This document shows, piece by piece, positions 10,331 through 59,386 of a stretch of DNA of 64,000 nt (the stretch's first letter is position 1; each line of letters starts with the position of its first letter). This DNA comes from an uncultured delta proteobacterium. GTDB lineage: Bacteria; Desulfobacterota; Binatia; UTPRO1. Made by a program: the position numbers and the translations under genes. The notes below the pieces were generated by a model. That model saw nothing but the letters and a program-made list of their open reading frames with translations. It had not been told where the DNA came from and did no database searches. Where the stretch lies: contig CAVXIU010000006.1 of NCBI GenBank assembly GCA_963761995.1, positions 3,681,684 to 3,745,683 of the forward strand. The letters run 5' to 3'.

Positions 10331-10498
10331 CTAGTGTCCCGTCCCGGAACATCGCCGCATGATTCTACGGGTCTTTTCAGCCCTGCCCGCGTTGCTCCTC
10401 CTCGAAATATTCGCTGAATATTCCTTCGTCGTCGCGCCTCGGCAGGGCTGAAAATCCCTCGCAGCCTCATGCGGCGATTTTCCGAAACGGGACACTAG
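10331..10498. repeat. Nested imperfect palindrome (~168 bp) between the ABC permease stop and the ubiB start, with a relatively AT-rich centre.
   Basis: The outer 32-bp arms are ctagtgtcccgtcccggaacatcgccgcatga and tcatgcggcgattttccgaaacgggacactag. The inner arms are ttttcagccctgcccg and cggcagggctgaaaa. The central palindrome is gaaatattcgctgaatattcc. Confidence 0.6.
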
Positions 10499-18500: not shown

Positions 18501-21500
18501 GCGCCGCCGTCAGCGCCTCGAAGCGGGCCAGCGCCTCGGCCTCGCGATCGCCGTCGAAGACCTCGTTGCAAATCAGGAGGCCGTCGCCGTCGAACGCCCG
18601 GAGCACGAGGCGCGGCACCTCGAAGGCTCCGCCGCCGGCGCGGTCGGTCCCCTCGCCCATTGCACGAACCAACAGCGCGCCGGGCTCGAGCCGGACGAGG
18701 TCGAGGACTCGCACGGCGGCATCGTCGGCGAGCGTCGTCAGCGCGACCGCGCGCGCCGTCGCCGCGGCTCGACGACGCGCCTGGCCGGCGGGGAGAAGCT
18801 CGGCGTAGAGCTCGTAGAGACGGGCGACGGCGGCGCCCGGATGGTCGGCCGCGAACAGCTCGACCCGCCGTAGCCGCCCGCTCGCGTCGACCTCGAGCAG
18901 CGTGAGGTGCTCGCGCTCGACGGCCCCGAAAGGCCCGAACGACTCGTCGCCGAAGGCCGTGAAGGAGCTGGTCTCGCGCTCCAGCAGCAGGGCGTCGCCG
19001 AGGGTCGCGAGGGGCTCGCTGCGGAACTGCAGGTCGCGCGCGCTCGCGATCTGACCGACGAGCGTCAGCACCTCGGCGCGCCCCCACGACGTGCCGGTCG
19101 GATGGTGCACGCTCACGTGGTCGTCGGCGAGCAGCTCGCCGAGGGCGTCGACGTCGGGGGTGACCCTCGCCGCCGCGAACCGCTCGGCGCTGGCAGTGGC
19201 CGCGTTCGGGCGGACGCGGCGTCGCGGCGGCGGCACCCGCGCGCTGGCGTCGCGGCCCGGTTCGCGCGGCGTGCTGCGGAGCGCCCGTTCGACGAGCAGC
19301 GTCGCGCCCTTGATCTCCCACAGCTCCGTCGCCCGCCGCTCCTCGGCATCGGCCTCGCCGCCGCGGCCCGCGGCACGGAGCGCCGCGGCGAGGGCGAGAC
19401 GCGCATCGGCGTGATCGAGAAGCGCATCGGTCGCGGCCGCGATCTCGACCGCCGTGCTCGCGAGCGCGACCGCGGCCGCGTGCTCGCCGCGCCGCGCCAG
19501 GGCCTCGGCGCGGACGCCGCGCCAGGCGATCGCGGCCTGGAGATCGTCGCCCGCGAGCGCCTCGCTCTCGTGGCTCTGCGCCTCGGCCTCGGGCACGCGG
19601 TCCAGCGCCAGCAGCGCCCGCGCCAGCAGCGCCCCGGCCCGTGCCGCGTCGATCCCGAGGCCGATGTCGCGGAGGCCTTCGTAGGCGCCGCGCAGGCTCC
19701 GCTCGGCGGCACGCGCGTCGCCCACCAACAGGTCGACGCGGCCGGCGAAGACCTCGATTTCGAGCAGGCGATGCGTGATGCCGATCTCCTCGACCATCGC
19801 ACGCGCCGACGCGATCATGTGGCGGGCGGCGTCGGTGCGACCGCGGAGCGCCTCGAGCACGCCCTGGCAGCTGAGCGCCACCGCCTCCACCACGGGCGCC
19901 CCCTGCGTGATCCTGAGCACCCGCACGACGTCGAGGCAGCGGCCGCTCGCGCGTGTCACCGGACTCGGTCCCCACAGCGCGGCGAGCGGCGCACCGGCGA
20001 GGACGGCGTTGGCGCGGCGCCGATCACCGGCGCGGCGAGCCGCGGCGAGGGCGCGGTCGAGTGCCGCCTCGGCGCCGCCGATCTGGCCGAGCCGCGCCAG
20101 CGCCTGCGCGTGCACCGCGTGCGCTTTGGCCTCGCCGGTGGCGTCGCCGAGCGCCGTCAGCGTCTCGGCGGCCGCGGCGACCGCGTCGACCGTGGCCGTG
20201 AGCCCCTCGGGAGCGGTGAGCGCGGTACGCTGGCCGGTGAAGCAGGCGTGCCACGCCCGCAGGCGCGCCGAGTCGGCGGTGAAGCGGGCGAGCTCGTCGA
20301 TGGCCGCGCCCGCCGGCCCGACCTCGCCGGCGGCGAGCAGGGCCTCGCACCAGTCGAGGGCGAGGCCGGCGCGGGTCGGGTCATTGGGCTCGACCCGCTC
20401 GATGGCGCGCCCGAGGAGTCCCGCGGCGAGGCGGACATCGTCGCGTGCGAGCGCCCGCCGTCCGGCGGCCGCGAGATGGCGCGCCGCCCGGGCGCCGAGC
20501 AGCCGCCCCTTGTCGTCGAGCGGCCCGAGCTCGCGGAGATGCTGGTGGGCCTGCTCGAAGTGCCAGCCGATGGTCTCGTCGTGCTCGACGGCCTCACCCA
20601 CACGCGCCGTCACCCAGTCGGCGACCCGCGCGTGCAGCTCGGCGCGCGTGCCCTTGAGGAGCCGGCGGTACGCCGCGTCGCGGATCAGGACGTGGTGGAA
20701 GCGCCAGGCCGGCTCGCCCAGGAACCGGCCGGCGTCGCGCTCGACGAGCTCGCCCCGCCGGAGCGCCTCGAGGCGGGCATCGAGATCGTCCGCCTCGTCT
20801 CCCAGCAGCTCGGCGACGGCGCTCCGCGAGAAATGCCGGCCCACGACCGCGGCTCGCTCCAGCACCGTCCGCTCCTCCGCGCGCAGGCGCTCGATGCGGG
20901 CGGCGAGGAGCGCGTGGATGGTGGGCGGCATCGCGAGCGCCGCGAGGCCGGCGCCGACGATCCAGCGCTCGCCTTCGCGCAGCAGCGCGCCCTCGTGGAC
21001 CAGCATGCGGACCAGCTCGCCGACGAAGAGCGGGTTGCCCTCGCTGGTCGCGAGCACCTTGGCGGCGACCGCCGCCGGCAAGTCCGCGGCGCCGATCACG
21101 CTGGCGGCGAGCCGCGTGGCCGCCCCGGCGTCGAGACCGCCGAGCGTCAGCACGTCGGCGACGAGGCCGCCTTGGGTCGTGAGCGCCGCGCGCGCGTCGC
21201 GGAGCTCCGGGCGGGCGCCGACGAGCACGAAGACCGGCACGCCGCCACCCCACTGCACGAGGTGCTCGACGAGATCGATGAGCAGCGGCTCGGCCCAATG
21301 CAGATCGTCGATCACCAGCACCACCGGCCGTACGGAGGCCAGCGCGGCGAGCAGGCGTCGCGCCACGGAGAAGGTCTCCTCCGGCGATCGCGGCGCCCCG
21401 GTGAGCAGCTCCGTCGTGCCGGCGACGATGCGCGCGCGGTCGGCTTCGGCGTGCGGGAGCGCCGCCTCGAGCGTGCTCCGCAAGACGTCGGCACCGGCGC

Positions 21501-21855
21501 CATCGTCGAGGCGGAGCCACCCACGCACGGCGTCGGCGAGCGGCGCGAAGGTCGCCCCGCCGGCCGCTTCGCAGTGCGCGGTGAGCACCGTCGCGGCGGC
21601 GTCGAGACGGCGCGCCAGCTCGCCGATCAACCGCGACTTCCCGAGCCCGGGCGAGCCGAGCACGACCGCGAGCCGGGTGGCGGGAGCGCCGACGGCCGCA
21701 TCGTAGACGGCCTCGAGACGCGCCAGCTCGCCGTCGCGTCCGACGAACGGCGTCGTCGCCGCCCCCGCCGGCGGCTCGAGCGACACCACACGATACACCG
21801 CCACCGCCCCGGCGCGCCCCTTGAGCGTCACGCTGCCGAGCGGCTCGAGCGTCAC
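15559..21855 (-). CDS. Giant signalling protein body: STAND/AAA ATPase, a helical/TPR-like region and about 9 tandem NTF2/SnoaL-like domains. It is the C-terminal 2,098 aa of an adenylate/guanylate cyclase gene.
   Basis: Walker A ([10 protein letters not shown]) follows the tail of the cyclase domain ([15 protein letters not shown]). Repeated ~120-aa units carry the pattern W/F..A...DWDA...Y.PD...D.RR.... Confidence 0.8.
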
Positions 21856-22432
21856 GCAGCGTCGCCACCAACCGCCGCGTCGCCTCGCCGATCAGCACGT
21901 CGCCGTCGCGTCCTTGCTCCTGCAGGCGTGCCGCCACGTTCACCGGGTCGCCGATCAGCTCGGTCGCGTCCTTCGCCACCACCTCGCCGGTGTTGACGGC
22001 GACGCGCAGCCCGGTGGCGCCGACCACGGCGCTCTCCGGCTCGGCCAGTGCGCGAAAGGCCTCTTGCATCGCGACCGCCGCCCGGACGGCGCGGATGGCG
22101 TCGTCCTCGGCGACGCGCGGCACCCCGAAGACGGCCATCACGCCGTCGCCGAGGAGCTTCGCAACGGCGCCGCCGTGCGCGGCGACGGCCGCGCCCATCG
22201 CCGCGTAGTAGCGCTCCATGAAGGCCCGCGCCGACTCGGCGTCGAGGCGCTCGTGCAGCGCCGTCGAGCCCACCAGGTCGGCGAAGACGATGGTGACGAC
22301 CTTGCGGCTCTCGACGGTCGCCGCGACACCCGTCGCCGGGCGGTCGCCGACCCGCGCCCCGCATTCGAGACAGAACTTGGCGCGCTCGGGATTGGCGTGG
22401 CCGCAGGCGCCGCAGGTCATGCCGTGCCCCAC
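21856..22432 (-). CDS. N-terminal zinc-ribbon plus class III nucleotidyl cyclase domain of the same gene, separated from the body by a +1 frameshift at ~21860.
   Basis: CGACGHANPERAKFCLECG zinc ribbon. Cyclase motifs IVFADLVGST and KLLGDGVMAVFG. The reading frame changes within gacgctgcgtgacgctcgag, an apparent 10-bp near-duplication. Confidence 0.6.
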
Positions 22433-25007: not shown

Positions 25008-28000
25008 ATGGTGGCCCCCACCCGCGTTCGCCGTAGCGCCACAGGCGCCCCACTCGTCGCCGTCGCCGTGGTCGCGGGCCTCCTACTCGCCGCCGGACCC
25101 GCCGCGGCCCAATCGATCTCCAGCACCTCCGTCAACACGGCCGGCAGCACCGGCAACTCGGGTGACGGCAACGGCTCGCGCCGCTCGTCGGTCGACACCC
25201 AGATCAACACCAGCACACAGTTCAAGACCCGCTTCGCCTGGAACATCAGCGCCGACGTCATCCCCGCGAGCACCCGCGACACCAACGGCACCGCACAGCA
25301 CAATCTCTCCTTCAACGTCACCGCCCCGGGCGGCTACCGCCTCGACGTCGGCCAGGACCGGGTCGGCATCGTGCAGCGCAACGCCGACATCAGCGGTTGC
25401 GACGGCGCCGCCGACATCTCCAGCTCGAACGGCAGTCAGAGCGGCGCCACCTTCCTCTCCGGCAGCCTGGACCTCGGCGATCCGGGCGGCATCTCGAACG
25501 GCGGGGGCGACTCCAACACGCCCTTCAACCAGTCCACCAGCGCGGCGTTCACCGGCAACAGCAACGGCGGCGCGGTCGGCCACTCGCTCTCCTTCAGCTG
25601 GACCGGCACCACCCGCAGCAACTCCTGCGAGGCCGCCGTCCGCCTCGGTGAAGAAAGCAGCGTAACCGACTGCGGGGCCTGCACCTATCCCGGGACCCCG
25701 AGCCGCACCCAGACCAGCGACGGCCACTTCGTGACCGTCACCCTGACCAACTACTGCGGCAACGGCACCGTCGACGACGTCGGCGTGGTGAACGAAGACT
25801 GCGATCCCCCCGGCGTGTGCTGCACCTCGAGCTGCAAGTTCGCCTCGAGCGCGACGCTCTGCCGCGGCTCGGCCGGCGTCTGCGACCCGCAGGAGACCTG
25901 CACCGGCTCGAGCGCGACCTGCCCCGGCAACACGTTCCTGTCGAGCGCCAACGTCTGCCGCAACTCGAGCGGCGTCTGCGACCCGGCGGAGAACTGCACC
26001 GGCTCGAGCGGGCCCTGCCCCGGCAACACCTTCCTGTCGAGCGCCAACGTCTGCCGTCCCACGGTCAGCATCTGCGACACCGCCGAGAACTGCACCGGCT
26101 CGAGCGGCCCCTGCCCCGGCGACGCCTTCGCCTCGAGCTCGACGCCGTGCCGCGCCTCCGGCGGCATCTGCGACGTCGTCGAGAACTGCACCGGGTCGAG
26201 CGCGGCCTGTCCCGGCAACGGCTTCGCGTCGAGCTCGACGCCCTGCCGGCCCTCGGTCGCCATCTGCGACGCCGCCGAGAACTGCACCGGCTCTGGCGCC
26301 GCGTGTCCGGGCGACGGCAAGAGCACCGCCGTCTGCCGGCCGGTGGGCGGCGTCTGCGACGTCGCCGAGAGCTGCGACGGCGTGAACAACGCCTGCCCCG
26401 CGAACGGCTTCGTGTCGGCCGCGACCGTCTGCCGCGGCGCCGGCGGGGTCTGCGACCTCGCCGAGAATTGCTCCGGCTCGAGCGCGGCCTGTCCCGGCGA
26501 TGCCAAGAGCTCGGCCGTCTGCCGGCCCTCGGGCGGCGTCTGCGACGTCGTCGAGAGCTGCGACGGATCGAACGACAACTGCCCCGGCGACGGCTTCCAG
26601 TCGAGCGCGACGGTCTGCCGTGGCTCCGGCGGCGTCTGCGACCTCGTCGAGAACTGCACGGGCTCGGGCGCGGCCTGTCCGGGCAACGACTTCGAGCCCG
26701 CGACCACCACCTGTCGAACGGCCGTGGACGTCTGCGACACGGTGGAGAGCTGCACCGGCTCGGGCGCGGGCTGTCCGTCCGACGCCGTCGAGCCCGTGAC
26801 GACCGTCTGCCGCGGCGCGGTCAGCAACTGCGACGTCGCCGAGAGCTGCGACGGCGCCGCCACCGCCTGTCCCGCCGAAGCGGTCGAGCCCAACACCACC
26901 GTCTGCCGCGCCGTCGCCGGCGTCTGCGACGTTGCCGAGAACTGCGACGGCACCACGACGGACTGCCCCACCGACGACTTCGAGCCCAGCACGACCGCGT
27001 GTCGCGGCTCGAGCGACGTCTGCGACGCCGCCGAGAGCTGCACCGGCTCGGCGGTGGACTGCCCGGCCGACGGCGTGCAGCCGAACACCACCGCGTGTCG
27101 CGCCTCGACCGGCATCTGCGACGTCGTGGAGAGCTGCGACGGCGTCACCAAGCCCTGTCCGGCCGATGCCGTGAAGCTCGCGACCGACGTCTGCCGGCCG
27201 GCCGCCAGCTCGTGCGACGCGGTCGAGAGCTGCACCGGGTCCGGCGTCAATTGCCCCGTCGACGCCTTCCTCGCCAGCAGCACGATCTGCCGGCCGACCG
27301 CCGGCCTCTGCGACGTCAGCGAGCATTGCACGGGGACGGGCCCGAACTGCCCGGGCAACTCGTTCGTGAGCTCCGCGACCGCGTGCCGCGCCTCGCTCGG
27401 CTCGTGTGATCCGGTCGAGAACTGCACCGGCTCGGCGGCCGCCTGCCCCGCCAACACGCTGACGCCGAACGGCACCGTCTGCCGCGTCGCGGCGGGCGTC
27501 TGCGACGTCGGCGAGGTCTGCAGCGGCTCCAGCCCGACGTGTCCCCCGGACGGCTTCGTATCCAGCTCTTCGCTTTGCCGCGGGCCGGCCGGCGTCTGCG
27601 ACGTCGCCGAGAACTGCACCGGCTCGAGCGCCCTCTGCCCCACCGATGGGTTCGCGCTCAACAGCCAGGTCTGCCGCGGCGCCGTCGGCGGCTGCGACGT
27701 CGTCGAGACCTGCACGGGGTCGGGCGTCGCCTGCCCGTCCGACGGCATCCAGCCCGCGGCGACGGTCTGCCGGCCGTCGGCCGGACCCTGCGACATCGTC
27801 GAGCAGTGCGGCGGCGGCGACGGCATGTGTCCGAGCGACACCTTCGAGCCGTCCTCGACGGTGTGCCGTCCGGACGCCGGCGACTGCGACGTCGGGGAGA
27901 GCTGCACGGGAACCGGCGTGGCCTGTCCTGCCGACGTGATCGAGCCCGACGGAACGACCTGCGACGACACCGAGAGCTGCACCGTCAGCGACATGTGCGT

Positions 28001-28652
28001 GGCCGGCGCCTGCACCGGCGAGTCGTCGATGTGCGGCGACGGCACGCATCAGGGCAGCTGCAACGAGGAGTGCGACGACGGCAACACCACGAGCGGCGAC
28101 GGCTGCTCGGCGACCTGTCAGCTCGAGTTCGGCTGCGAAGCGGGCCCCGAGGTCGGCTGCAAGCTTCCCACCGCGCCCAAGCAGGCGCAGTTCCAGATCT
28201 CGGACAAGAGCCCCGACAGCAAGGACCGCCTGCAGTTCAAGTGGAACAAGGGCGCCGCGACCACCCTCGCCGAGTTCGGCACGCCGCTCACCACCACCGA
28301 GTACGTGCTGTGCGTCTACGACGGCGGGGTGTTGAAGGCGAAGGCCAAGATCCCGCCCGGCGGCCTCTGCGCCGGGAAGCCGTGCTGGAAGGCGAAGTCG
28401 ACCGGCTTCCAGTACAAGGACAAGGACCTCACGCCGGAAGGCATCCAACAGGTCAACCTGAAGGCGGGCGTCGCCGGCAAGGCGAAGATCCAGGTGAAGG
28501 GACGGGGCGACAACCTGTTGACGCCGACCCTGCCCTTCGCACAGCCGGTGGTCGTGCAGCTGAAGAGCAGCGACGGGGTCTGCTGGAGCGCGACCTTCAA
28601 CGCGCCGGCCACCAAGAACATCAGCTCGGTCTTCAAGGACAAGACCGACTAA
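25008..28652 (+). CDS. Giant secreted cysteine-rich repeat protein: ~230-aa N-terminal domain, ~45 tandem ~40-aa four-Cys repeats, a Myxococcus-type CDDGN disulfide repeat and a ~150-aa C-terminal domain.
   Basis: Signal peptide. The repeat consensus is C(R)xxxGxCDxxExCTGxxxxCPxDxFxxSxTx. One CNEECDDGNTTSGDGCSATC module is present. 1,214 aa with no frameshift. Confidence 0.85.
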   Translation: MVAPTRVRRSATGAPLVAVAVVAGLLLAAGPAAAQSISSTSVNTAGSTGNSGDGNGSRRSSVDTQINTSTQFKTRFAWNISADVIPASTRDTNGTAQHNLSFNVTAPGGYRLDVGQDRVGIVQRNADISGCDGAADISSSNGSQSGATFLSGSLDLGDPGGISNGGGDSNTPFNQSTSAAFTGNSNGGAVGHSLSFSWTGTTRSNSCEAAVRLGEESSVTDCGACTYPGTPSRTQTSDGHFVTVTLTNYCGNGTVDDVGVVNEDCDPPGVCCTSSCKFASSATLCRGSAGVCDPQETCTGSSATCPGNTFLSSANVCRNSSGVCDPAENCTGSSGPCPGNTFLSSANVCRPTVSICDTAENCTGSSGPCPGDAFASSSTPCRASGGICDVVENCTGSSAACPGNGFASSSTPCRPSVAICDAAENCTGSGAACPGDGKSTAVCRPVGGVCDVAESCDGVNNACPANGFVSAATVCRGAGGVCDLAENCSGSSAACPGDAKSSAVCRPSGGVCDVVESCDGSNDNCPGDGFQSSATVCRGSGGVCDLVENCTGSGAACPGNDFEPATTTCRTAVDVCDTVESCTGSGAGCPSDAVEPVTTVCRGAVSNCDVAESCDGAATACPAEAVEPNTTVCRAVAGVCDVAENCDGTTTDCPTDDFEPSTTACRGSSDVCDAAESCTGSAVDCPADGVQPNTTACRASTGICDVVESCDGVTKPCPADAVKLATDVCRPAASSCDAVESCTGSGVNCPVDAFLASSTICRPTAGLCDVSEHCTGTGPNCPGNSFVSSATACRASLGSCDPVENCTGSAAACPANTLTPNGTVCRVAAGVCDVGEVCSGSSPTCPPDGFVSSSSLCRGPAGVCDVAENCTGSSALCPTDGFALNSQVCRGAVGGCDVVETCTGSGVACPSDGIQPAATVCRPSAGPCDIVEQCGGGDGMCPSDTFEPSSTVCRPDAGDCDVGESCTGTGVACPADVIEPDGTTCDDTESCTVSDMCVAGACTGESSMCGDGTHQGSCNEECDDGNTTSGDGCSATCQLEFGCEAGPEVGCKLPTAPKQAQFQISDKSPDSKDRLQFKWNKGAATTLAEFGTPLTTTEYVLCVYDGGVLKAKAKIPPGGLCAGKPCWKAKSTGFQYKDKDLTPEGIQQVNLKAGVAGKAKIQVKGRGDNLLTPTLPFAQPVVVQLKSSDGVCWSATFNAPATKNISSVFKDKTD
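25800..28020 (+). repeat. Tandem ~120-bp coding repeats (Cys-rich modules) inside the 25008-28652 gene.
   Basis: About 18 near-identical units in direct orientation. They are the source of long spurious antisense ORFs. Confidence 0.7.
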
Positions 28653-28659
28653 CAAATCG

Positions 28660-28810
28660 AGGGATCTCTCCCTCGCCCCGGACGGGCAAAGCCCGTCCGG
28701 GGCGAGCGCGAGCCGGCGAGTGCGAGATCGCAGACCGCCTTCGTACGACCCACTCCCGGCTCGCTCTCGCTCGGCCGCGCGCTCCGCGCGCGGAATTGCT
28801 GCTTGATTCC
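28660..28810. repeat. Structured intergenic element (three consecutive hairpins), copy 1 of 3. REP- or terminator-like.
   Basis: Hairpins gagggaTCTCtccctc, ccccggacgggCAAAgcccgtccgggg and ggccgcgcgcTCCgcgcgcgg. Stems differ from copies 2 and 3 by compensatory changes. Confidence 0.5.
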
Positions 28811-28860: not shown

Positions 28861-30882
28861 ATGGGTAAAAAAGCACGCGAGAAGCGCGAGCGTGGGGAGT
28901 CGCATTCCCCGCCGCTCGCGCGCTCCACGACCGAGTCCGGCCCGGCGCTCCGGCGGCCGGAGGAAACGCGCGCGGCGCGCGCGCGTGCGGGCCTCGAGTG
29001 GCCGGCCTGGCCGCCCACCGGCGAGCCCGTCGTCTGGCCGACGGTCGCGGTCGTGGTCGGCGTCGCCCTCCTCATCCGGGTGATCGCTCTCACCCTGATG
29101 ACGCGCACGCCCTACCTCCAGATCGACACCATCGATGCCAAGGGCTACCAGGTGTGGGCGGCGCAGATCCTGGCGGGCGACTGGCTGCCCGCGCGCCACT
29201 TCTACCAGTCACCGCTCTACGCCTATTACCTCGCGGGCGTGCAGGCCGCCTTCGGCTCCTCGCCCTGGCCGCCGCGCGTGATCCAGATCCTCCTCGGGAG
29301 CGCCAGCTGCGGCCTCTTGACGATCGTCGGCACCCGCCTCTTCGATCGCCGCGTCGGCCTCGTCGCCGGGCTCCTGCTCGCCACCTACGGTCCGATGGTC
29401 CTCGAAGAGACCTCGCTCGGCAAGACGGCACTGCTCATCTTCGGCGGCCTGCTCGGATTCGTCTGCTTCCTCCGCGCGCTCGACCGCCGCGAGGCGCGGC
29501 TCATGGCGGTCGCCGGCCTGATCTTCGGCGTCACCGTCATCGGCGTCGGCCAATGGCTCCTGGCACTCGTCGGCCTCGCCCTCTACCTCGCCTTCGATCG
29601 CGTGCTGTCGCGGCCGCTCGCGCCCCGCTTCGCGGTGCTCTTCCTCGCCGGGGCGCTCACGGCGCTGGCGCCGATCGTGGCCTGGAACAGCTGGTGGGGC
29701 GGCGGCTTCATGCTGACGAGCGGGGACGCCGGCCTGAACCTCTATCTCGGCAACAACCCCCTCACGACCGGTCTCACCGGGCGGCCGAAGGGGCTCCGCG
29801 ACATCCCCGAGTTCGAAGAGAGCGACTCCCGGCGCCTCGCCGAGCGCGACGCCGGCAAGACGCTCACGCCCGCCGGGGTGTCGCGGCACTGGACGCGGCG
29901 TGCGCTCGGCTGGGCGACGTCGCATCCGCTCGACTTCGCGGCCACCACCTGGCGGAAGATCACCGTCCTCTGGAACAGCTACGAGATCCCCGACAGCTAC
30001 CACTTCGCATTCATCCGCCAGCAGTACATCCCCTGGCTCTGGGCCGGCACCACCTTCGCCGTGGTCGGCCCGCTCGGCCTACTCGGCCTCGTGCTGGCGG
30101 CTCGGCACCGGCGCGCGCGTCCGTTGTACGTGCTCTGCCTCGGCTACCTCGGCGTGATCGCCCTCTTCTACGTGCGCTCGCGCTATCGGATGCCGGCGGT
30201 GCCGCTCCTGATGGTGTTCGCGGCGGTGACGATCGACTGGGCGATCCGCATACTGCCGCGCGACGATTGGCGGCCCGTTGCCGCGCTCGGCGCCGGCCTC
30301 GCCCTCATGGGCCTGTTCGTGAACCACTCCTACTGCGAGCCGGCGCGCGAGAACGCGCCGGCCATCTGTCTCGACGGCGACGTCTGGTTCGACAGCGAAT
30401 GGCAGAAGATCGCCGAATGGCACGAGCAACACGGCGAGCTCGGGACGGCGCTCGTCTACCTGCGTCGCGCCGCCGCCGGCGAGTCGCAACGCGGTCCCGG
30501 GCAGACCCAGCTCTGGATCGGCCGGCTCGAGCTCGCGCTGGCGCAGCGCGCCGGCGATCCGGCCGTCGCAGCGCCGCGACTCGCGGCCGCGATCCCGGCG
30601 CTCGAGCTCGCGGTGCAGCACGGCTACCACACGTACGAGGCGAAGACGTATCTGGCGACCGTCTACCAGCTCCGCGGACAGCCCGCGGAGGCGGTGGCGG
30701 CGAGCGACGCCGCCATCCGCGACCGCCCGCGCGATCCCGTCGTGGTGCTGTCCGCGCTCCGCACCCGCGCCGCCCTCGGCCGCTGCGACGACGCCCGCCG
30801 CCTGCGCGAGGATCTTCGCCGCCTCCGCCCCGAGGACCCGCAGGCCGACCAGATCGTCGCGAGCTGCCGGCCGTCGTCGTAG
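28861..30882 (+). CDS. GT39/PMT-like membrane glycosyltransferase (ArnT/dolichyl-phosphate-mannose-type) with a C-terminal TPR-like region.
   Basis: About 11 TM helices followed by helical repeats. 673 aa. Confidence 0.7.
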   Translation: MGKKAREKRERGESHSPPLARSTTESGPALRRPEETRAARARAGLEWPAWPPTGEPVVWPTVAVVVGVALLIRVIALTLMTRTPYLQIDTIDAKGYQVWAAQILAGDWLPARHFYQSPLYAYYLAGVQAAFGSSPWPPRVIQILLGSASCGLLTIVGTRLFDRRVGLVAGLLLATYGPMVLEETSLGKTALLIFGGLLGFVCFLRALDRREARLMAVAGLIFGVTVIGVGQWLLALVGLALYLAFDRVLSRPLAPRFAVLFLAGALTALAPIVAWNSWWGGGFMLTSGDAGLNLYLGNNPLTTGLTGRPKGLRDIPEFEESDSRRLAERDAGKTLTPAGVSRHWTRRALGWATSHPLDFAATTWRKITVLWNSYEIPDSYHFAFIRQQYIPWLWAGTTFAVVGPLGLLGLVLAARHRRARPLYVLCLGYLGVIALFYVRSRYRMPAVPLLMVFAAVTIDWAIRILPRDDWRPVAALGAGLALMGLFVNHSYCEPARENAPAICLDGDVWFDSEWQKIAEWHEQHGELGTALVYLRRAAAGESQRGPGQTQLWIGRLELALAQRAGDPAVAAPRLAAAIPALELAVQHGYHTYEAKTYLATVYQLRGQPAEAVAASDAAIRDRPRDPVVVLSALRTRAALGRCDDARRLREDLRRLRPEDPQADQIVASCRPSS

Positions 30883-30930
30883 CGGCGTTGCGTCGAGGTT
30901 TACGTCGCACGCTCTCACGTTCGTGACGGG

Positions 30931-31064
30931 CGTGGCGGGTGGGCGGGGGTCGTTTCTCCGCTCGTGGGCTTCCGGTCCCCAGCGCCTACGGCCCGCCGCA
31001 GCTTCGTTCGTCCTGCGGATGACGCGAGTTGCTACTCGCTCCGAAACGACCCCGCCCACCCGCC
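30931..31064. mobile_element. MITE-like palindromic element A with perfect 22-bp terminal inverted repeats.
   Basis: ggcgggtgggcgggggtcgtttc ... gaaacgaccccgcccacccgcc, flanking ~90 bp. Confidence 0.45.
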
Positions 31065-31130
31065 GACGACTACGCGACGTCACACGTTCGATGCCTGCAT
31101 CCGAGAGGCTTGGATCCGCGTCCGGCAGCG

Positions 31131-31275
31131 GGCGTCGCTTCGCGGGGGCGGTGGGTCGCTTTGGAGCGAGTAGCAACTCGCGTCGTGCGCAAGACGGAGG
31201 AGATCCGGCGGGCTCTAGGCGCTGGGCACCTGGAACCCACGAGCGGAAAAGCGACCCACCGCCCCCGCGAAGCGA
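31131..31275. mobile_element. MITE-like element B: an inverted copy of element A (~85% identical) with ~29-bp terminal inverted repeats.
   Basis: gcgtcgcttcgcgggggcggtgggtcgcttt ... aaagcgacccaccgcccccgcgaagcgac. The internal sequence is the reverse complement of element A (ccgctcgtggg...cgcgagttgctactcgctcc). Confidence 0.45.
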
Positions 31276-31293
31276 CCGTCTTGGCGAGAGTCC

Positions 31294-31743
31294 CTAGCCC
31301 GGGGGCCAGCGCATCTGACGGCCGCCGAGGACGTGCATGTGCAGGTGGTAGACGGTCTGGGCGCCCAGCGGGTTCGTGTTGATCACGACGCGGAAGCCGT
31401 TCTCGGCGACGCCACGGGCCCGCGCCGTGTCGCGCGCGAGCGCGAGCATCTCGGCGAGCAGCTCGGGCGGCGCGTCGAGCAGCGACGGGACGCGCGTCTT
31501 CGCGACCACCAGGACGTGCACCGGCGCCTGGGGATCGATGTCGTCCACCACGAACGCGTGCGCCGATTCCGCGACCCAGCGGTCGGGTGGAATCGACTCG
31601 AACGGGCTCGGCGCGGCCAGCGCCGCGGACTTGCCGCGCGCGAGGTACGATTCGGCCGCTCTCCAGTAGAGCCACCCGAGCGGGTCCGCCTCACCGAGCG
31701 CGAACGCGATCGCGATCACCAGCAGCAGCTTCCGTCGATCCAT
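31294..31743 (-). CDS. HIT family hydrolase with an N-terminal signal/TM segment.
   Basis: Histidine triad HLHMHVLGG, AFVVDDIDPQAPVHVLVV. Confidence 0.75.
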   Translation of the reverse strand: MDRRKLLLVIAIAFALGEADPLGWLYWRAAESYLARGKSAALAAPSPFESIPPDRWVAESAHAFVVDDIDPQAPVHVLVVAKTRVPSLLDAPPELLAEMLALARDTARARGVAENGFRVVINTNPLGAQTVYHLHMHVLGGRQMRWPPG

Positions 31744-33595
31744 CGGATCCCCCTGGACGCGCCCGGGCGAGCGACGCGCCGAGCAGAGCGGCGACGAGCA
31801 GGAGCGGCAGCAGGCTCCATCGGCTCTCCGGAACGATCAGCTCGCCCGCGTTCAGCGAGTTCGCGCGCGCGAAGCGGCTGCCCGCGGGCGTCAGCCGGAA
31901 GAAGCCGCCCTCGTAGATGCCGATCGGATTCGCCGACACCGGTCCCCACACGCCGGCGAGTGGAATGCGGACGGGATCGCCGCGCGCGATCTGGGCGCGG
32001 AGGTCGGCCTCGAGCTGGACTCGCGCTCGCTCCCGCTCCTCGGGCGGGACGCCCCGCGCCTGGGCGCGCCGTTCGGCCCCCGCCAGCAGAAGCTCCACGC
32101 CCTCTTCGAGCATCGGCCACGGTCGGCCGCCCACGAAGAGCGGCACGAGATAGCGTGTCAGCGGGTCGGCGCTCCAGGTCGAATACGGCGTATGGCCCGC
32201 GAGGCTGCGGTCGCCGATCGGGACCTGCGGATCGACGGCCGTCACCAGCAGTTGGATCGCGATCGCGAGCGCGGCGAGGGTCGCGGTGACGAGGCGCCAG
32301 CGCCGCCAGGCGAGCGCGATCGGGAGGGAGAGGAACGGAACGGCCGGTCCGAGGTAGCGTGGGACGGCCGTGTAGCCGCCGTCCCAGCCGTTGAAGCTCG
32401 CGTTCATGAGCATGAGATAGGCGGCGACGAGCCCGATCATCCACGTCCACGCGTGCGGTCCGCCGCCGCGCCAGAGGAGGACCAGCCCCGCGACGCCCAC
32501 GAGCAGGACGGGCGACGTGAAGAAGAGCCCCCGATACGGCGAGAACAGGACGGTCAGCAGCACGTCGAGGCGCGGCACCGCGAAGACTCCGAGGAGCCGA
32601 CTCTCGGCGACGAACATCTGGTTCTGGTAGGCGTAGTTGGTCGTGAACGGCGTCCCGAAGCACGCCCAGTGGTAGGCGCAGACGAGCGCGAGCGGCACGA
32701 GCACCCCGAGCCCGAAGCCGAGCCCGCCGCGCCACCAGCCGGCCCGTACCATCGCGAAGCAGCCGAGCAGCGCGACCAGCGGCGCCATCGCGTAGTTGGT
32801 GATCGCGGCCCAGCCGGCCGCGAGGCCGGCGAGCACGAGCCACCCGAGCGGAGCGAGCGCCAGATCGGTCTCGGCCGGTGCCGCGCGGGCACGTTCGATC
32901 AGGTAGAAGGCCGCGAGCAGGCCGACCGCGATCACGTTGTGCTCGAAGAGCAGCGTCGCGTGCGGCCAGTGCATGGTCCCGAACGCGAATACCAGCGCGG
33001 TCAGGACCGCGTCGCGCTCGGAGGCGAGCTGGCGTGCCAGGCGCAGCAGCAACACGACCCCGAGCGCGCTCACCAGACCGACGCTCAGCACCGACGCCAG
33101 CCAGGCATTGGCGGTGAGGACCGCGAAGCGGTCGCCGTCGAGCCCGAGCGCGAGCTCGATTGCGTGGACGACGGCGTAGCCCGGGACGGCGAGGAAGGAC
33201 GTCCCGGGTGCCTTGTTGGGATGGAAGTGACCGTCGTGGTACGCGAGGTCTCCGGAGGCCGCGACCGTCTCGACGGCGACGAGCGGCGCGTCGCCGCGTG
33301 CCTCGGGATCGATCGCCGTCGACTCGCCCTGCATGGTGCGCCACGCGAGCGCCCGCCGGGCGCCGTCGCGCTCGAACACGCCGCGCCGGAGCGGCGCGCG
33401 CGCGAGCGTCCCGTCGGCGACGCGCAACCGGTAGACCAGATAGTCGTCGATGGCGAAGGTCTCCTGCTCGACCATCGCCCGCACCAGCGCGAAGCGCACG
33501 TTCTGGCCCCAGCCGCCACCCTGATGGAACCAGGCGAAGGCGATCAGGGTGAGCACGAAGAGCAGACGCTCGACGCGGGGCGAGACCGCGAGCAT
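31691..33595 (-). CDS. GT39/PMT-like polytopic membrane glycosyltransferase.
   Basis: Start at MLAVSPRVERLLFVL (ATG complement 33593-33595). Twelve or more TM helices. Its 3' end overlaps the HIT start by 53 nt. The longer ORF reaching 34969 is an off-frame overrun. Confidence 0.65.
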   Translation of the reverse strand: MLAVSPRVERLLFVLTLIAFAWFHQGGGWGQNVRFALVRAMVEQETFAIDDYLVYRLRVADGTLARAPLRRGVFERDGARRALAWRTMQGESTAIDPEARGDAPLVAVETVAASGDLAYHDGHFHPNKAPGTSFLAVPGYAVVHAIELALGLDGDRFAVLTANAWLASVLSVGLVSALGVVLLLRLARQLASERDAVLTALVFAFGTMHWPHATLLFEHNVIAVGLLAAFYLIERARAAPAETDLALAPLGWLVLAGLAAGWAAITNYAMAPLVALLGCFAMVRAGWWRGGLGFGLGVLVPLALVCAYHWACFGTPFTTNYAYQNQMFVAESRLLGVFAVPRLDVLLTVLFSPYRGLFFTSPVLLVGVAGLVLLWRGGGPHAWTWMIGLVAAYLMLMNASFNGWDGGYTAVPRYLGPAVPFLSLPIALAWRRWRLVTATLAALAIAIQLLVTAVDPQVPIGDRSLAGHTPYSTWSADPLTRYLVPLFVGGRPWPMLEEGVELLLAGAERRAQARGVPPEERERARVQLEADLRAQIARGDPVRIPLAGVWGPVSANPIGIYEGGFFRLTPAGSRFARANSLNAGELIVPESRWSLLPLLLVAALLGASLARARPGGSDGSTEAAAGDRDRVRAR

Positions 33596-33630
33596 CGCGC
33601 CCGCGTGGGGACCGCGCGCGCCCCTCCCGC

Positions 33631-35271
33631 TCACGGCGTCCCCGTCAGGCGTCGGACGTCGTCGGCGCTGACGTCGAAGACGTAGATCGAGCGGCCGATG
33701 CGCGCGCTCGGCTGCAGTCGGTCGAGCCACGACCAGGCACCGGCACGTACGCCCTGGATGCGCGGACCGGGGTAAGTGATCGCGTACCCGTAGCCGGCGA
33801 GGAAGTTCGCGCTCACGGCGCAGCGTCCGGGGGCCGGCGCGCTCGGCGGCAGGGTGTACTCGATGCCGTAGAGCGCCGGGTCGACGTGCCCGAAGTAGCC
33901 GAGGCAGATCCGGTCGAGGTGATTGGCGTCGAGGTAGTCCTTGACCCGCCCCAGGTCCTGGCCCCAATCGAGGTTCGAGTCGAGGAGCCAGCGACGGCCG
34001 GAGTCGCCCGGCCCGGCGAGCGCGTTGAAGTACGCGAGGTGGTGCGGTGCCGTCACCGCGCACGCGACCAGCTGCCATCCCACCAGGACCCCGACGGCGA
34101 GGGCGCCACGACGCCCTGTCCGCATGAGCGCCTCGGCGCCGACGCCCGCGAGCAGGAGCAGGAACGGCATGGCGGGCAGCAGATAGCGCACCCCGTAGTT
34201 TTTCCCGAAGTGGAACGACAGGACGTACAGAAGAAAAAGCGGTGGCAGCACGACCCAGAGATCGGCGCGCAGCCTGCGGCGCGCCACCACGACGGCGCCG
34301 ACCGCCGTGAGCGCGATCGTCGGGAGCGGCGTCTTCAGCAGGAAGGCGACCGCGAAATAGTACCACCAGCCCGTCTGTGACCAGGTGCCGTGGAGGAAGG
34401 CGGGAAACTCGCCGGCGCTGCTCGCGAGCGACTGGAAGCGGATGCCCTCGAGCACCGGCCCGGGAAGTGGGAAGCCCGAGAACTGGTAGACCGCGAGCAC
34501 GGCGACCCACGCCGTGACGGCGATCACTACCATCCCGTCGGCCAGGCGGAGCCAGCCCTCGCGGTCCCACGCCCGCCAGCCGACGGCCGCGAGCACGGGC
34601 ACGAGCGGCAGGAAGACCAGCGTGACCCCTTTGGCGGCGACCCCGAGACCGAAGAGCACGCCGCTCGTCGCGGCCCACGGCCGGAGCCCGGTCGCGGCGA
34701 AGCGCTGGAGGGCGAAGAAGGCCGCGAAGATCAACGCCGTGACGCCGACGTCGAGGGTGGCGAGCGCGCTGTGAGCGAGGATGGTCGGGCTCGAGCAGTA
34801 GAGCGCCAGCACCGCGAGCGCCGCGAGCGGCGGGACGGGCGCCCGCGCCCAGCGCCACAGCACGAGGCCGGTCGCGACGCCGATCGCCAGCACCACCAGA
34901 CGGGCCGCGAAGAAGGCGTCGAGGTAGCGCGCGCGGTTCAGCTCCATGAAGCGGGTGCCGAAGATCCATGGACCCCAGCCGGTGCGGTCGTCGCGCCAGC
35001 GCGGGTCGCGGTCGAGCGCGAGGCCCATCGCCAGGAGCGGCAGCGCGCTCGCCATCTTGAGGAGCGGCGGATTGGTCGGATCGAAGCCGAGGTCACCCGT
35101 CGCGAGGTGGTAGTAGCCGGCCGGCACGTACACGAACTCGTCGACGGTCGGGGTGTGCGTGCGCGCCGCCAGCACGCCGTTCGCGACGAAGAAGGCGAGC
35201 AGCAGCGCGACCGCCACGCGCTCGCGTCCCGGCGTCAGGACCGCTCCGTGCTGGTCGGCCGGGGCGCGCAA
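33631..35271 (-). CDS. ArnT/GT39-like membrane glycosyltransferase.
   Basis: 546 aa with an N-terminal GT-C style DEF..P loop and about 11 TM helices. Confidence 0.75.
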   Translation of the reverse strand: MRAPADQHGAVLTPGRERVAVALLLAFFVANGVLAARTHTPTVDEFVYVPAGYYHLATGDLGFDPTNPPLLKMASALPLLAMGLALDRDPRWRDDRTGWGPWIFGTRFMELNRARYLDAFFAARLVVLAIGVATGLVLWRWARAPVPPLAALAVLALYCSSPTILAHSALATLDVGVTALIFAAFFALQRFAATGLRPWAATSGVLFGLGVAAKGVTLVFLPLVPVLAAVGWRAWDREGWLRLADGMVVIAVTAWVAVLAVYQFSGFPLPGPVLEGIRFQSLASSAGEFPAFLHGTWSQTGWWYYFAVAFLLKTPLPTIALTAVGAVVVARRRLRADLWVVLPPLFLLYVLSFHFGKNYGVRYLLPAMPFLLLLAGVGAEALMRTGRRGALAVGVLVGWQLVACAVTAPHHLAYFNALAGPGDSGRRWLLDSNLDWGQDLGRVKDYLDANHLDRICLGYFGHVDPALYGIEYTLPPSAPAPGRCAVSANFLAGYGYAITYPGPRIQGVRAGAWSWLDRLQPSARIGRSIYVFDVSADDVRRLTGTP

Positions 35272-38932: not shown

Positions 38933-41900
38933 TCACTTGCACTTGATCGTGCCGGGTGGCGCCACGAACGCGCAGGCAGGCGACTGTGGTCCCGGGAAGA
39001 GCGCGTCGCCGCATTGATTGGTGCTCGCGTAGGGCGGATCGAGGATCAGCGTGCCCCGCATGGGCAAGCTCGCCGGTAGCGGATAGCCACCGTTCCGCGC
39101 CTGCACCGAGAACCGGACCTGGCCCGGCACCTTGGTGTTCTTCTTGATGAGGATCTTGGTCACGCCCTCGATGAGCGGGACGCCGCCGCCGAGGTTCTTG
39201 TAGAGGAACGTCGTCCCCTTGCTGTTCGCCTTCCACCCGGCATTCGTCAGCGCGTCGAAGAGACCCGGCGGGATGGCGGCGTCGACGATCGTCGTGCCGG
39301 CGCCGTCGACGAAGATGATGCGCACGCCGTCGCTCGCGGGATCGATCGCCGCCGACGGTACCGTCATGGTGCCCGAGAACTTGAAGCGGTGGTCGCCGAT
39401 CGGCTGCGCCAGCTTCTGCATGCTGAGCTTCGGCTTCACGGCCCGCACGTCGGCGGCGTTGGTGCAGGGATCGCAGGCGTCGCCGAGGCCATCGCCGTCG
39501 CCATCCTCCTGGCCCGGATCGACCACCGTGAGGCACACGTCCTCGAGGTCGCAGGTGCCGTCGCCGTCGCCGTCGGGCTGACCGGTGTCGGCGGGACAGC
39601 CGACGCCGCTTCCAGTGCAGAACTCGGGGACGTCGCAGGTGCCCGCGGTCGGCCGGCACTCGACGCTCGACGATTGCAAGGCGTCGCTCGGGCAGTTGGC
39701 GCCGCCGCTGCAGGTCTCCGCCAGGTCGCAGACGCCGGCCGAGGGACGGCAGGTGACGGCGTTGGTCGCGAACCCGTTCGGCGGACAGACGGACGAGCTG
39801 CCGGTGCAGCTCTCCGCGAGGTCGCAGACGCCCGTCGCCGGGCGGCACGTCACGGCGCTCGACGCGAAGCCGTCGCTCGGGCAGGCGGTCGTGGAGCCGT
39901 CGCAGCTCTCGGCCAGGTCGCAGACGCTCAGCGCCGCGCGACAGACGCTCGAGCTCGACGCCACCGCGTCACTCGGACAGACGTTCGAGCCGCCCGTGCA
40001 CTGCTCGACGGCGTCACATGTCGAGACCGCGGCGCGGCAGACGGTGGACGACGCCGCGAAGCCGTCGCCGGGACAGGCGGCGCTCGACCCGCTGCACTTC
40101 TCGACCGCGTCGCAGGTGGAGACGGCGCCGCGGCAGACCACGGTATTGGCGGCGAAACCGTCGTTCGGACACGTCGCGCTACCGCCGCTGCAGCTCTCGG
40201 CGACGTCGCAGATACCAGTCGCGGCCCGGCACGCCGTCCCGTTCACCACCAAGACGTCGGCCGGACACGACGGGTCGTTGCCGGTGCAGCTCTCGGCCAC
40301 GTCGCAGGAGCCGCCAGCGCCGCGGCAGACGGTCGCCGACGACGCGAACCCGTCCGGGGGGCAGGCGGTGCCGAAACCGGTGCAGGTCTCGGCGACGTCG
40401 CACACGTCGCCCGCGATGCGGCACGGCGTACCGCCGGGCACGACGCCATTCGCCGGACAGTCGCTACTGGAACCGTCGCAACTCTCGACCGCGTCGCAGT
40501 CGTCGATCGCCGGACGGCAGATCGCCGTCGACTTGCCGTCGCTCGGGCAGGCCGCGCCGCCACCGGTGCAGACCTCCCCGTGGTCGCACACGCCGCCCGC
40601 GGGGCGGCATACCGCGCCGTTGGCGGCGAACTGGTTGCTCGGGCAGGCGGCGCTCGAGCCGGTGCAGCTCTCGGCGAGGTCACAGCCGCCCGCAGCCGAG
40701 CGACAGACGGTGGATCCCGACACGAAGCCGTTCGTCGGGCAGGCGCCGCTCGCCCCCGTGCAGGTCTCGGCGACGTCGCAGATCCCGGCCACGGTGCGGC
40801 ACGAGGTGCCGACGGTCACGTACTGACAGCTCGCCGTGCAACACGAGGTCGAGCTGCCGTTGGCCGCGCCCTGATCGCATTGCTCGCCGGCCTCGATTGC
40901 GGCGTTGCCGCAAATGCTCCCCTTGGTGATGACGAGCGTGTCGAACACGGCGTCGTTGTTGTCGATCGACTTCAGGGTGAGCGTGGTGTCGCTGACGATC
41001 CGCACCTCGCTGAACTGGAAGCGCGCGAAGCTGCAGTACTGGCCGTTGACGCCGTTCGAGCAGTTGTTGGCGAGCCAGGGACAGTACTCCTTGGAGTGGA
41101 AGAAGCCCTGGCCGAAGGGGCCGCCGCCGTCGACCTGGGCGGCGCTGTCGAGGCTGGCACCGCCGCCTCCGGTCATGATGTAGCGGGTGGACAGGCCGTC
41201 CGAGCCGCCGGCCCCGCCGATCTGGTAGTGGTCGACGAGCCCCGAGCGCTCGTAGATGTGATCGTGGCCGTCGAAGACGATGTCGACGCCGTGTTGCTCG
41301 AAGATCGGACCCCAGTTGTCGCGCACCGTGTGGTCGCTGCCGATCGAGGCGAAGCCGTTGGCACACGAGTACGGCGTGTGGTGCAGGAACACGAACTTCC
41401 ACTTGCGAGTGGTGGCGGCGAGGTCGGCGGCGAGCCAGCTGTTCTGGAGCGAGACCGCCCCCGGATTGGAATCGAGCACCACGAAGTGGGCGTTGCCGTA
41501 GTCGAACGAGAAGAAGCGCTCCTCCTGGCCCGCCGGCGCGTTCCGCGGCAGCGCGTGCATCTTGATCTCGACCGAGTTCGCCCAGTTACCGGCGCCGACG
41601 TTGTTCAGATCGTGGTTGCCGAGGACCGGAATGAACACCGCGCGCCGCAGGATCTGGTTCTTGAACTGCGAGATGAAGACGTTGTTGTCCCAGTCGGACT
41701 GGGTGCCGTTCTGGTAGGCGTTGTCGCCGACCGTCATCAGGAGCGGCGGGTCGTCGGCGTGGAGGATGTTGCCGAGCTGGCCCTGGGCGCTCGAGCCTTG
41801 GCCCCAGTCGCCGATGACGGTGAAGTAGAGCTCGCTCGGGTCGCTCGTCGCCTTGAAGGTCTGGAAGTAGGTCGTGGCCAGGACCTCGGTGCCGTTGGTG

Positions 41901-42208: not shown

Positions 42209-42332
42209 GTCACCCTCGTTGGTATTGATGGCGGCCCTGCCAGGAGGCCGGCTCGAAAGGTTGGCGCCGGCAACCATACACGCCCAACCGGCCAGGATGG
42301 AAGGAAAATCTGCACCAGTGTAGAGCAGCTCC

Positions 42333-46355: not shown

Positions 46356-46400
46356 CGACGCCCGGGCACGCGCCGCGGGATCACGTTTGCGAGCCTGGTC

Positions 46401-54344: not shown

Positions 54345-54345
54345 C

Positions 54346-54440
54346 TCAGAAGGGGGATCCCTCCCCCTTCGCCGCCGCGGCAAAGCCGCGTCGGCTCGTC
54401 CCCCGGCTCGCATTCGCTCGGCCGCGCGCTAACGCGCACG
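54346..54440. repeat. Structured intergenic element, copy 3 of 3.
   Basis: gggggaTCCCtccccc, cgcggcAAAgccgcg and gccgcgcgcTAAcgcgcacgg. About 90% identical to copy 2. Confidence 0.5.
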
Positions 54441-54599
54441 GAGATCGTTGTCGTGGATCCCTCTCCTACTCGATCGGGCCAGTCAGGGGGCCAGCGGGCA
54501 GCGAGAACGCCCGGCCCCCTCCCGTCGTTGAGCAGGCGAAAAATGCCTGGCGAATCGGCGGCCTGATGTGGTAACCCCCCGAGACGGACCGTCGCCCAA

Positions 54600-58335: not shown

Positions 58336-58344
58336 CGACCGACG

Positions 58345-59382: not shown

Positions 59383-59386
59383 CGCA

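Follow-up and report, generated by a model that had tools for sequence, protein, structure and literature searches.

Paired structured palindromic repeats at convergent gene ends: a sequence family with a possible role as strand-specific RNA

What keeps two long, mutually inverted palindromes in place between a pair of convergent genes? The question arises in a 64-kb stretch of DNA from an uncultured delta proteobacterium of the Binatia lineage UTPRO1, here called the window, in which two palindromic units, elements A and B, lie between a GT39-type glycosyltransferase gene and a HIT-family gene. An initial annotation had found them to fit a pair of miniature transposable elements bounded by inverted repeats (MITEs) or one large cruciform-forming site. 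We find that they belong to a dispersed family of repeats whose paired bases change together between copies, and whose wobble pairs fall mainly on one strand. The explanation that we tentatively place first, short of calling it probable, is that the units are cis-acting structured RNA at convergent gene ends, where they would mark or block read-through transcription.

Elements A and B

Coordinates without a locus name are those of the window; 'plus' is the orientation of A on the window plus strand and 'minus' is the reverse. The two units, their parts and the flanking genes are as follows.

30931-31068, minus strand (putative folded and functional strand): element A, a structured palindromic unit of ~138 nt
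30931-30956, no strand: left arm of closing stem P1 of A, pairing with 31043-31068, with one bulged G
31043-31068, no strand: right arm of P1 of A, partner of 30931-30956
31023-31042, plus strand: 20-mer core CGCGAGTTGCTACTCGCTCC in A; the same core lies in B at 31163-31182, minus strand
31069-31133, no strand: 65-nt spacer between the units, containing GCTTGGAT
31134-31276, plus strand (putative folded and functional strand): element B, a structured palindromic unit of 143 nt, inverted copy of A
31134-31162, no strand: left arm of P1 of B, 29 nt, 100% complementary to 31248-31276
31248-31276, no strand: right arm of P1 of B, the other half of the perfect 29-nt inverted repeat
28861-30882, plus strand: GT39-type gene (PMT_2 and TPR, membrane glycosyltransferase), from Pfam and its third-position GC frame
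31294-31743, minus strand: HIT-family gene (Pfam HIT, 4.4e-21; homologues found)

Element A had been described as bounded by perfect 22-bp terminal inverted repeats. The terminal stem is real, but consists of 15 + 7 perfect pairs with one bulged G between them in the left arm. It reaches 26-27 bp once flanking pairs are counted; these added pairs shift the end of A from 31064 to 31068 and leave its start at 30931. The inverted repeat of B is indeed a perfect 29 nt, at coordinates corrected here to 31134-31276. Column identity between A and the reverse complement of B is 86-87%, in line with the ~85% first estimated, and the core common to both, CGCGAGTTGCTACTCGCTCC, is exact in each on opposite strands: it has exactly 2 matches in the 64 kb, one per element (0.00 expected from shuffles).

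Both elements fold far beyond shuffled sequence on both strands and rank among the top hairpin-forming repeats of the window. RNA z-scores span -4.7 to -9.9 (A, -4.7 to -5.0; B, -7.9 to -9.9), and single strands folded with DNA parameters give -4.8 to -8.9. The gap that holds them (411 bp, 30883-31293) is non-coding, its GC being flat across the three codon positions in a genome of ~71% GC, unlike the GT39-type and HIT genes with their strong third-position GC bias. Single-base indels between copies and the flat codon-position GC rule out coding potential for the units themselves. The flanking genes converge on the pair, with the GT39 stop codon 48 nt ahead of A and the HIT stop codon 17 nt off B, and Pfam and codon-position GC agree on the convergent setting that had been proposed.

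A seven-copy family with a conserved fold

To date the family comprises seven copies of 134-143 nt in three high-GC bacterial genomes (the window and the unrelated metagenomic contigs L009 and L013), arranged as three inverted doublets and one singlet. The five copies outside the window are listed here.

L009 7507-7640, plus strand: copy C, from the profile search, in an inverted pair with D
L009 7787-7922, minus strand: copy D, from the profile search, in an inverted pair with C
L013 10182-10322, plus strand: copy E, in an inverted pair with F
L013 10425-10563, minus strand: copy F, in an inverted pair with E
L013 8475-8616, plus strand: copy G, a solo copy

These loci were reached by two routes. 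The exact 20-mer core had 0 matches across one genome per GTDB species; in metagenomes it recovered one true locus (L009) and one chance coding match (L010). Because high-GC spacers often receive spurious gene calls, we also used the window's spurious plus-strand open reading frame (ORF) over A and B as a query in an exhaustive protein search, which led to a 226-aa pseudo-protein (P0001) and from it to L013. No match came from a six-frame chimera of the units or from the open minus-strand frame across the intergenic region as protein queries, nor did BLASTN match the units to plasmids. In viral contigs a 16-mer gave two matches, both chance and coding, and the signature TTYTCCGC-N16-CCCAGCGCNNA gave 8, all judged chance by the profile hidden Markov model (HMM). 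The covariance-model search covered ~311 kb (the window and related loci), the remaining loci being scanned with the profile HMM; neither yielded an eighth copy, and at full covariance-model sensitivity the window holds A (115.8 bits, minus strand) and B (137.1 bits, plus strand) and nothing more. Copy density is thus low, at 7 in the ~311 kb searched. Rfam 15 gave no gathering-level match in the window, with only noise at E up to 10 in 30600-31600, and nothing at E up to 0.1 in L009 and L013; literature searches turned up no description matching the family. We regard the family as uncatalogued and a candidate for a new Rfam-type family.

With five more copies at unrelated loci in two other contigs, the units are not a one-off local palindrome, and the part of the mobile-element proposal that stands is that this is a dispersed repeat family. 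The classical hallmarks of MITEs are absent. Target-site duplications are missing from the flanks of all 7 units and all 3 pairs, and the window holds no transposase. We consider it very improbable, and largely refuted, that two classical MITEs with terminal inverted repeats were placed side by side by a DDE transposase. Such elements would account for terminal inverted repeats on ~140-bp intergenic units of a multi-copy family, but would not lead one to expect the inverted-pair layout to recur in three genomes from independent insertions, and the stems themselves argue otherwise.

This is best seen in the fold, which we describe in the minus orientation on the seven-copy alignment (A7), counting P1 pairs outward from the conserved junction, apart from the MAFFT register. 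A G/C-rich closing stem, P1, of 22-29 bp leads through a symmetric GGA/GGA internal loop into helix P2 and a top of two hairpins, P5 and P3. The interior parts fall in B as follows.

31163-31171, plus strand: first GGA of the internal loop (31163-31165), then the P2 5' strand GCGAGT (31166-31171); A7 columns 31-39
31179-31207, plus strand: hairpin P5, pairing 31179-31185 with 31201-31207; A7 columns 47-53 and 70-76
31210-31238, plus strand: hairpin P3, pairing 31210-31213 with 31235-31238; A7 columns 79-82 and 104-107
31239-31247, plus strand: P2 3' strand ACGAGC (31239-31244), then the second GGA (31245-31247), from alignment and covariation

In P1, 157/168 cells are Watson-Crick although 17/24 positions carry at least 2 Watson-Crick pair types among the seven copies; terminal repeats that vary this widely between copies, always compensated, are not what a MITE would retain. 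Over the whole structure 14 pairs are altered on both sides. Tested on the unfitted MAFFT alignment, the structure has 83.3% of its cells paired, where shuffles give 74.7% (0/500 reach the observed value), and sliding the pairing partners lowers the figure to 37-50%. The interior helices alone give 78.4% against 71.9% (0/500). Within P2, pairs 38-109 and 39-108 co-vary across copies, the two variable pairs switching between GU/AC, CG/CG and GC/GC, with copy E a perfect GCGCCG/CGGCGC; the 2x2 mismatch within this helix becomes tandem G·A/A·G on the folded strand. P5 has 82.6% of its cells paired over the 7 copies, with G·U on the folded strand only. P3 is the weakest helix, supported by double changes from G-C to A-U in copies C and E, and its loop bears the invariant GCGCTGGG. 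A local hairpin drawn from the previously noted core, GCGAGU-AGCA-ACUCGC, was rejected as a conserved helix, having no covariation support.

Read in the plus orientation, the interior holds invariant blocks at fixed spacing (TCCGC, CCCAGCGC and CGCTCC) and has diverged less than the termini, the opposite of what transposase recognition of MITE ends would produce. What these sequences preserve, through compensatory change, is structure rather than the sequence of the ends, which suits a structured element of RNA or single-stranded DNA more than a classical MITE.

The same compensation bears on the proposed cruciform. A long-range inverted repeat between A and B does exist, with arms of 66 and 60 nt that are 79-82% complementary across the 65-nt spacer, and the potential for a hairpin of ~120 bp is real: at equilibrium a strand spanning both units would form one such hairpin at -254 to -280 kcal/mol, against -162 to -192 kcal/mol for two local folds. 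A and B differ, however, at ~9/22 stem positions while each stays self-complementary, so that evolution keeps pairing within units and not from A to B. A giant cruciform of A with B was accordingly set aside as the selected structure: it is favoured thermodynamically and contradicted by the within-unit compensation.

Within the L013 genome E, F and G are only 69-78% identical, each with a near-perfect stem, and a divergence of 22-31% with stems intact in one genome argues for upkeep in place rather than recent copying. Across genomes C clusters with E (0.77), and D clusters with both F and B (0.79-0.82; D-F 0.82), whereas partners within a pair are no more alike than this (C-D 0.73, E-F 0.77). 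The partners in L009 and L013 are thus of differing subtypes that are close across genomes, and the doublet of two subtypes is therefore old. The spacers do not align overall between pairs and range from 65 to ~145 nt, and spacer homology was dropped on that ground. Those of the window (31069-31133) and L013 (10323-10424) do share a stretch, TT[CG][GC]ATG(A)CCTGCA...GCTTGGAT, with GCTTGGAT at the same offset of ~41-47 nt from the left unit, and the L009 spacer has GTTTCGATACCGG; the common stretch could be a remnant of an ancestral spacer or a non-consensus promoter.

Strand bias, gene ends and competing explanations

Does the fold belong to one strand? A G·U pair on one strand reads as an A·C mismatch on the other, and all transition-type mismatches in the core of P1 are A·C on plus and hence G·U on minus, recurring at stem positions 1 and 5. 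The counts of G·U cells are given by helix.

Core P1: minus 8, plus 0
P2 and P5: minus 5, plus 0
P3: minus 2, plus 5 (four of these in one doubtful column)
All helices: minus 15, plus 5
Outer extension of P1: minus 3, plus 4

P1, P2 and P5 together thus carry 13 G·U on minus and 0 on plus. It is this asymmetry across the whole family that assigns a strand to element A. The loops agree with it, since on the minus strand they become GGA/GGA and tandem G·A, known RNA motifs, and on the plus strand pyrimidine mismatches. In C, D, F and G the minus-strand fold is the more stable by 5-14 kcal/mol; in A, B and E the two strands fold equally well. A replication-linked mutation bias is excluded as the cause because the partners of a pair lie on opposite DNA strands with the same bias, and deamination on the coding strand of the nearest gene is excluded because it would give the opposite sign. 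The pattern in these alignments points to selection on a single-stranded fold, of RNA or single-stranded DNA, in the strand antisense to the abutting gene.

A site acting in double-stranded DNA fits this poorly. Convergent transcription builds supercoiling, and the units could serve nucleoid or topology proteins of the gyrase or IHF type as binding or cruciform sites comparable to the bacterial interspersed mosaic elements (BIMEs) of E. coli. In those, Y and Z repetitive extragenic palindromic (REP) sequences alternate in orientation with defined linkers, and mRNA stabilisation, termination and protein binding have been proposed as roles. The likeness lies in inverted pairs of two subtypes at gene 3' ends or between convergent genes; convergent intergenic regions make up 3/4 of our loci, and single strands fold strongly with DNA parameters, as given above. 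A duplex site would provide no cause for preferring G·T over A·C on one strand, where P1, P2 and P5 stand at 13:0, and protein sites usually keep their sequence whereas these stems vary freely. The unit here is also four times larger than in BIMEs, has no linker motif beyond the one short common stretch, and its strand-biased wobble speaks for folding of a single strand over a protein site in duplex DNA. We think a duplex site improbable.

Where the copies sit supplies a second constraint. In the plus orientation 6/7 copies start 10-51 nt past the stop codon of a same-strand gene. The neighbours are unrelated between loci: the window has GT39 and HIT, L009 has a membrane protein and Lon protease, and L013 has small genes without recorded Pfam matches. 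The E/F pair follows the stop of one minus-strand gene and lies ~465 nt upstream of a minus-strand operon. In L013 between 7400 and 12000 the high-GC third-position frame jumps repeatedly inside apparent genes, which suggests indel errors in the assembly, perhaps of a long-read contig to judge by its name; caution is due with the gene calls near E, F and G and with bulges of one base in these copies.

Under the cis-acting RNA reading, read-through from one gene would cross the gap and copy the far unit, which adjoins the facing gene, in its preserved orientation. The fold of the far unit would then act as a strand-specific 3'-end structure, whether roadblock, processing site or stability hairpin, and the transcript would end before becoming antisense to the facing gene. 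A doublet would in this way protect both genes and a solo unit one only; the geometry of solo copy G fits, in agreement with protection of one gene by a singlet. The family, its compensated structure, its strand-biased wobble and its siting at gene ends are shown; the conjectural parts of this account are that the fold is one of RNA and not single-stranded DNA, that it arises when transcription reads through, and that it serves to terminate, insulate or stabilise. A bolder form is doubtful in our view: that the units form a novel class of structured RNA, strand-specific and cis-acting, which sits at the far end of intergenic gaps and shields 3' ends from antisense read-through of the convergent neighbour, probably via a dedicated protein partner and not by hairpin stability as such. 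The architecture of the proposed class would be the long closing stem, the GGA/GGA loop, the tandem G·A pairs and the Y-shaped top.

Several points weigh against the RNA reading. The stems are not followed by a U-tract at any copy, so they are not canonical intrinsic terminators, and an intrinsic (Rho-independent) terminator was rejected as an identity for the units; a search for terminators found none at A, B or the window spacer and none at E, F or G, while the scored sites in L009 are partial stems inside D without real tracts. The near unit, which a transcript would meet first, is also very stable, and the account gives no reason why only the far one should act. At equilibrium a transcript over both units would prefer the ~120-bp hairpin to two local folds. 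Near-perfect 25-bp stems exceed what RNA stability needs, and templated correction of quasi-palindromes in DNA could be an alternative source of them. The E/F pair in L013 is not plainly convergent, its context being co-directional or unclear. With P3 counted the strand ratio falls to 15:5, and the outer extension of P1 shows nearly equal counts. The seven related sequences on which the structure was tested are those from which it was derived, and the RNA role and its strand hang on the wobble asymmetry in these copies.

A different route to a transcribed unit would be independent trans-acting small RNA (sRNA) genes, each transcribed outward from a promoter in the spacer to give two homologous sRNAs per locus. 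The strand of the preserved fold does run outward from the spacer, the invariant single-stranded blocks GGAGCG, GCGCTGGG and GCGGA could serve as binding or seed regions, and the stretch TT[CG][GC]ATG..CCTGCA..GCTTGGAT recurs at equal offset in two spacers. Against this, no sigma-70-like promoter was found in any spacer or beside any copy, the solo one included, spacers of such varying length are unalignable overall, and with no terminator past the units the transcripts would run antisense into the neighbours. The missing adjacent promoters favour read-through transcripts over separate sRNA genes, which we regard as quite unlikely.

The remaining alternative is mobile DNA of another kind. The doublet could be non-autonomous DNA resembling REPINs, moved as folded single-stranded DNA by an HUH/tyrosine transposase encoded elsewhere (a REP-associated tyrosine transposase, RAYT, or an IS200/IS605-like enzyme), with stems persisting since only foldable copies propagate. 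We hold this, the main rival of the RNA reading, to be possible though unlikely, and more likely than the sRNA and duplex-site proposals. Inverted doublets able to form a hairpin prevail here (3 pairs to 1 solo copy), the units are dispersed to unrelated loci in three genomes, and subtype similarity across genomes (C-E 0.77, D-F 0.82) at or above that between partners suggests that the pair is an old unit. The mechanism predicts no target-site duplication, as seen, and G·T wobble biased to one strand is compatible with recognition of one DNA strand. REPINs, too, are extragenic, consist of two inverted palindromic units around a poorly conserved spacer, show compensatory changes and occur as singlets, and their long hairpin competes with a 'clover' fold of the two halves (PMC3116915). 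REPs are nevertheless 20-40 nt long, highly conserved, tagged with GTAG/CGTC and present in hundreds of copies beside a RAYT gene (PMC3116915; for REP/RAYT, PMC2817692). The units described here measure 134-143 nt; their branched interior is conserved and their ends vary and co-vary, the termini being the least conserved portion; no terminal tag of the GTAG/CGTC type is common to all, GACG/CGTC standing beside A and B only. They are sparse (the seven matches of the 311-kb covariance-model search), copies in one genome are 22-31% diverged yet perfectly paired, unlike decaying selfish copies, and neither the window nor the fetched loci contain a RAYT or IS200 gene.

Other repeat families match in part. 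ERIC/IRU and Correia/NEMIS elements are imperfect palindromes of ~105-160 bp that are transcribed into mRNA hairpins; they have conserved terminal inverted repeats, TA target-site duplications and many near-identical copies, and are reported to affect flanking mRNAs in an orientation-dependent way. Our units share their size, the imperfect palindrome spanning the whole unit and the transcribed intergenic siting, and differ in having no duplications, variable ends and an obligate-looking inverted doublet. Bidirectional terminators made from repeats include the TRIT motifs of M. tuberculosis and inverted pairs of DNA uptake sequences in Neisseria, which are single short hairpins, usually with U/A tracts. 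Common to both are a conserved palindromic repeat family between convergent genes and a proposed two-sided stop to transcription; the present family differs in its two large units, each branched, in its lack of a U-tract and in folding on a specific strand. Retrons were first found in myxobacteria, and in the msr-msd RNA a long terminal stem of flanking repeats encloses hairpins at comparable length in the same broad taxon. A retron RNA was rejected, the units lying in inverted pairs with no Rfam match and no adjacent reverse-transcriptase gene, beside GT39, HIT, Lon, membrane-protein and other genes. Integron attC sites resemble the units in length range (57-141 bp), in structure over sequence, in one functional folded strand and in position just past gene 3' ends; this too was rejected, as there are no RYYYAAC/GTTRRRY core sites, the units are inverted and not direct, the neighbours are syntenic core genes and the window has no integrase. 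ARAGORN finds no tRNA or tmRNA gene in the window, which removes an element derived from either, and the defining features of a Y-RNA-like element are absent. General reviews treat ERIC/IRU and Correia/NEMIS (PMC2229807, PMC10969869).

Surroundings of the units and significance

The relatives of the window are Polyangiaceae-like. GT39 orthologues are 70-74% identical in L001-L006 and L008 and 48% identical in L007, and relatives in the 70-74% class keep synteny on both sides of the gene. None of the syntenic GT39 loci L001-L008 has units; in place of gene X and HIT they have a GDSL-lipase gene, and in L002 only ~6 nt separate the convergent stops at the GDSL-lipase junction. Compared with L001-L005, the interval in the window from GT39 to the downstream conserved PMT_2 gene (33631-35271, minus strand) carries gene X, HIT and the element pair instead, which places the units at the edge of a replaced segment. 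The HIT orthologue loci L014-L022 are likewise without units. Gene X itself is as follows.

31691-33600 (start approximate), minus strand: gene X, a ~630-aa multi-pass membrane protein without Pfam match, from its third-position GC frame and translation

It lies upstream of HIT in the same operon, its ORF overlapping the annotated HIT start by ~50 nt, and by topology it looks like a GT-C-type glycosyltransferase. In L018 a 672-aa gene without Pfam match stands upstream of HIT, followed by ABC permease genes; it resembles gene X by size and position only. The wider setting of the window is ordinary chromosome, with cytochrome oxidase, ABC1 kinase, NAD synthase and radical-SAM genes, and contains no transposase, integrase, RAYT or reverse transcriptase.

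Other palindromes occur in the window. An unrelated, near-perfect 168-nt palindrome at 10331-10498, with 39-nt arms that are 85% complementary, has an RNA fold of -121 kcal/mol (z -13.3) at a local GC of ~58%. It fills the gap between two minus-strand genes, stopping at the ABC1-kinase ATG. CTAG flanks it on both sides and could be a 4-bp target-site duplication, in which case it would be a stronger MITE candidate than A or B; the window has one copy of it, and the other loci examined have none. Two simple G+C-rich hairpins mark gene ends: one at 28666-28712 (22-bp stem, 3-nt loop) just past the stop of a disintegrin-repeat gene, the other at 46318-46378 (17-bp stem, 27-nt loop) spanning the stop of a TPR gene (~46352). 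Both are probably ordinary 3'-end hairpins without U-tracts, showing gene ends that lack the large units.

Some coding regions also stand out. Very large proteins with 6-10 disintegrin-domain repeats are encoded at 25008-28652 (plus strand) and 38936-42775 (minus strand), one of them also with purple-acid-phosphatase and metallophosphatase domains; the repeats are eukaryote-like and cysteine-rich, and are conserved beside GT39 in the Polyangiaceae-like relatives. A 2110-aa ORF at 15562-21891 (minus strand) has the unusual architecture of an N-terminal AAA_16 ATPase followed by several SnoaL/DUF4440-like domains. At 53730-62656 (plus strand), radical-SAM and SPASM-domain genes amid ORFs without Pfam matches may form a peptide-modification cluster, similar to those for ribosomally synthesised and post-translationally modified peptides.

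The family thus consists of large palindromic intergenic repeats in inverted doublets, known from seven copies and from their sequence. It carries a caution for annotation, in that 'terminal inverted repeats' which co-vary between copies are not to be taken as transposase sites. Should the units prove to be large REPIN-like doublets, that class of mobile DNA would extend to four times its usual unit size and to a new phylum. Myxobacteria-like genomes are large and GC-rich, their transcript 3' ends are poorly understood and few canonical U-tract terminators occur in them. If the cis-acting RNA reading is true, the family would give such genomes a recognisable mark or insulator of gene ends, specific to one strand and of use in annotating transcript boundaries and perhaps as an insulator part for myxobacterial natural-product clusters.

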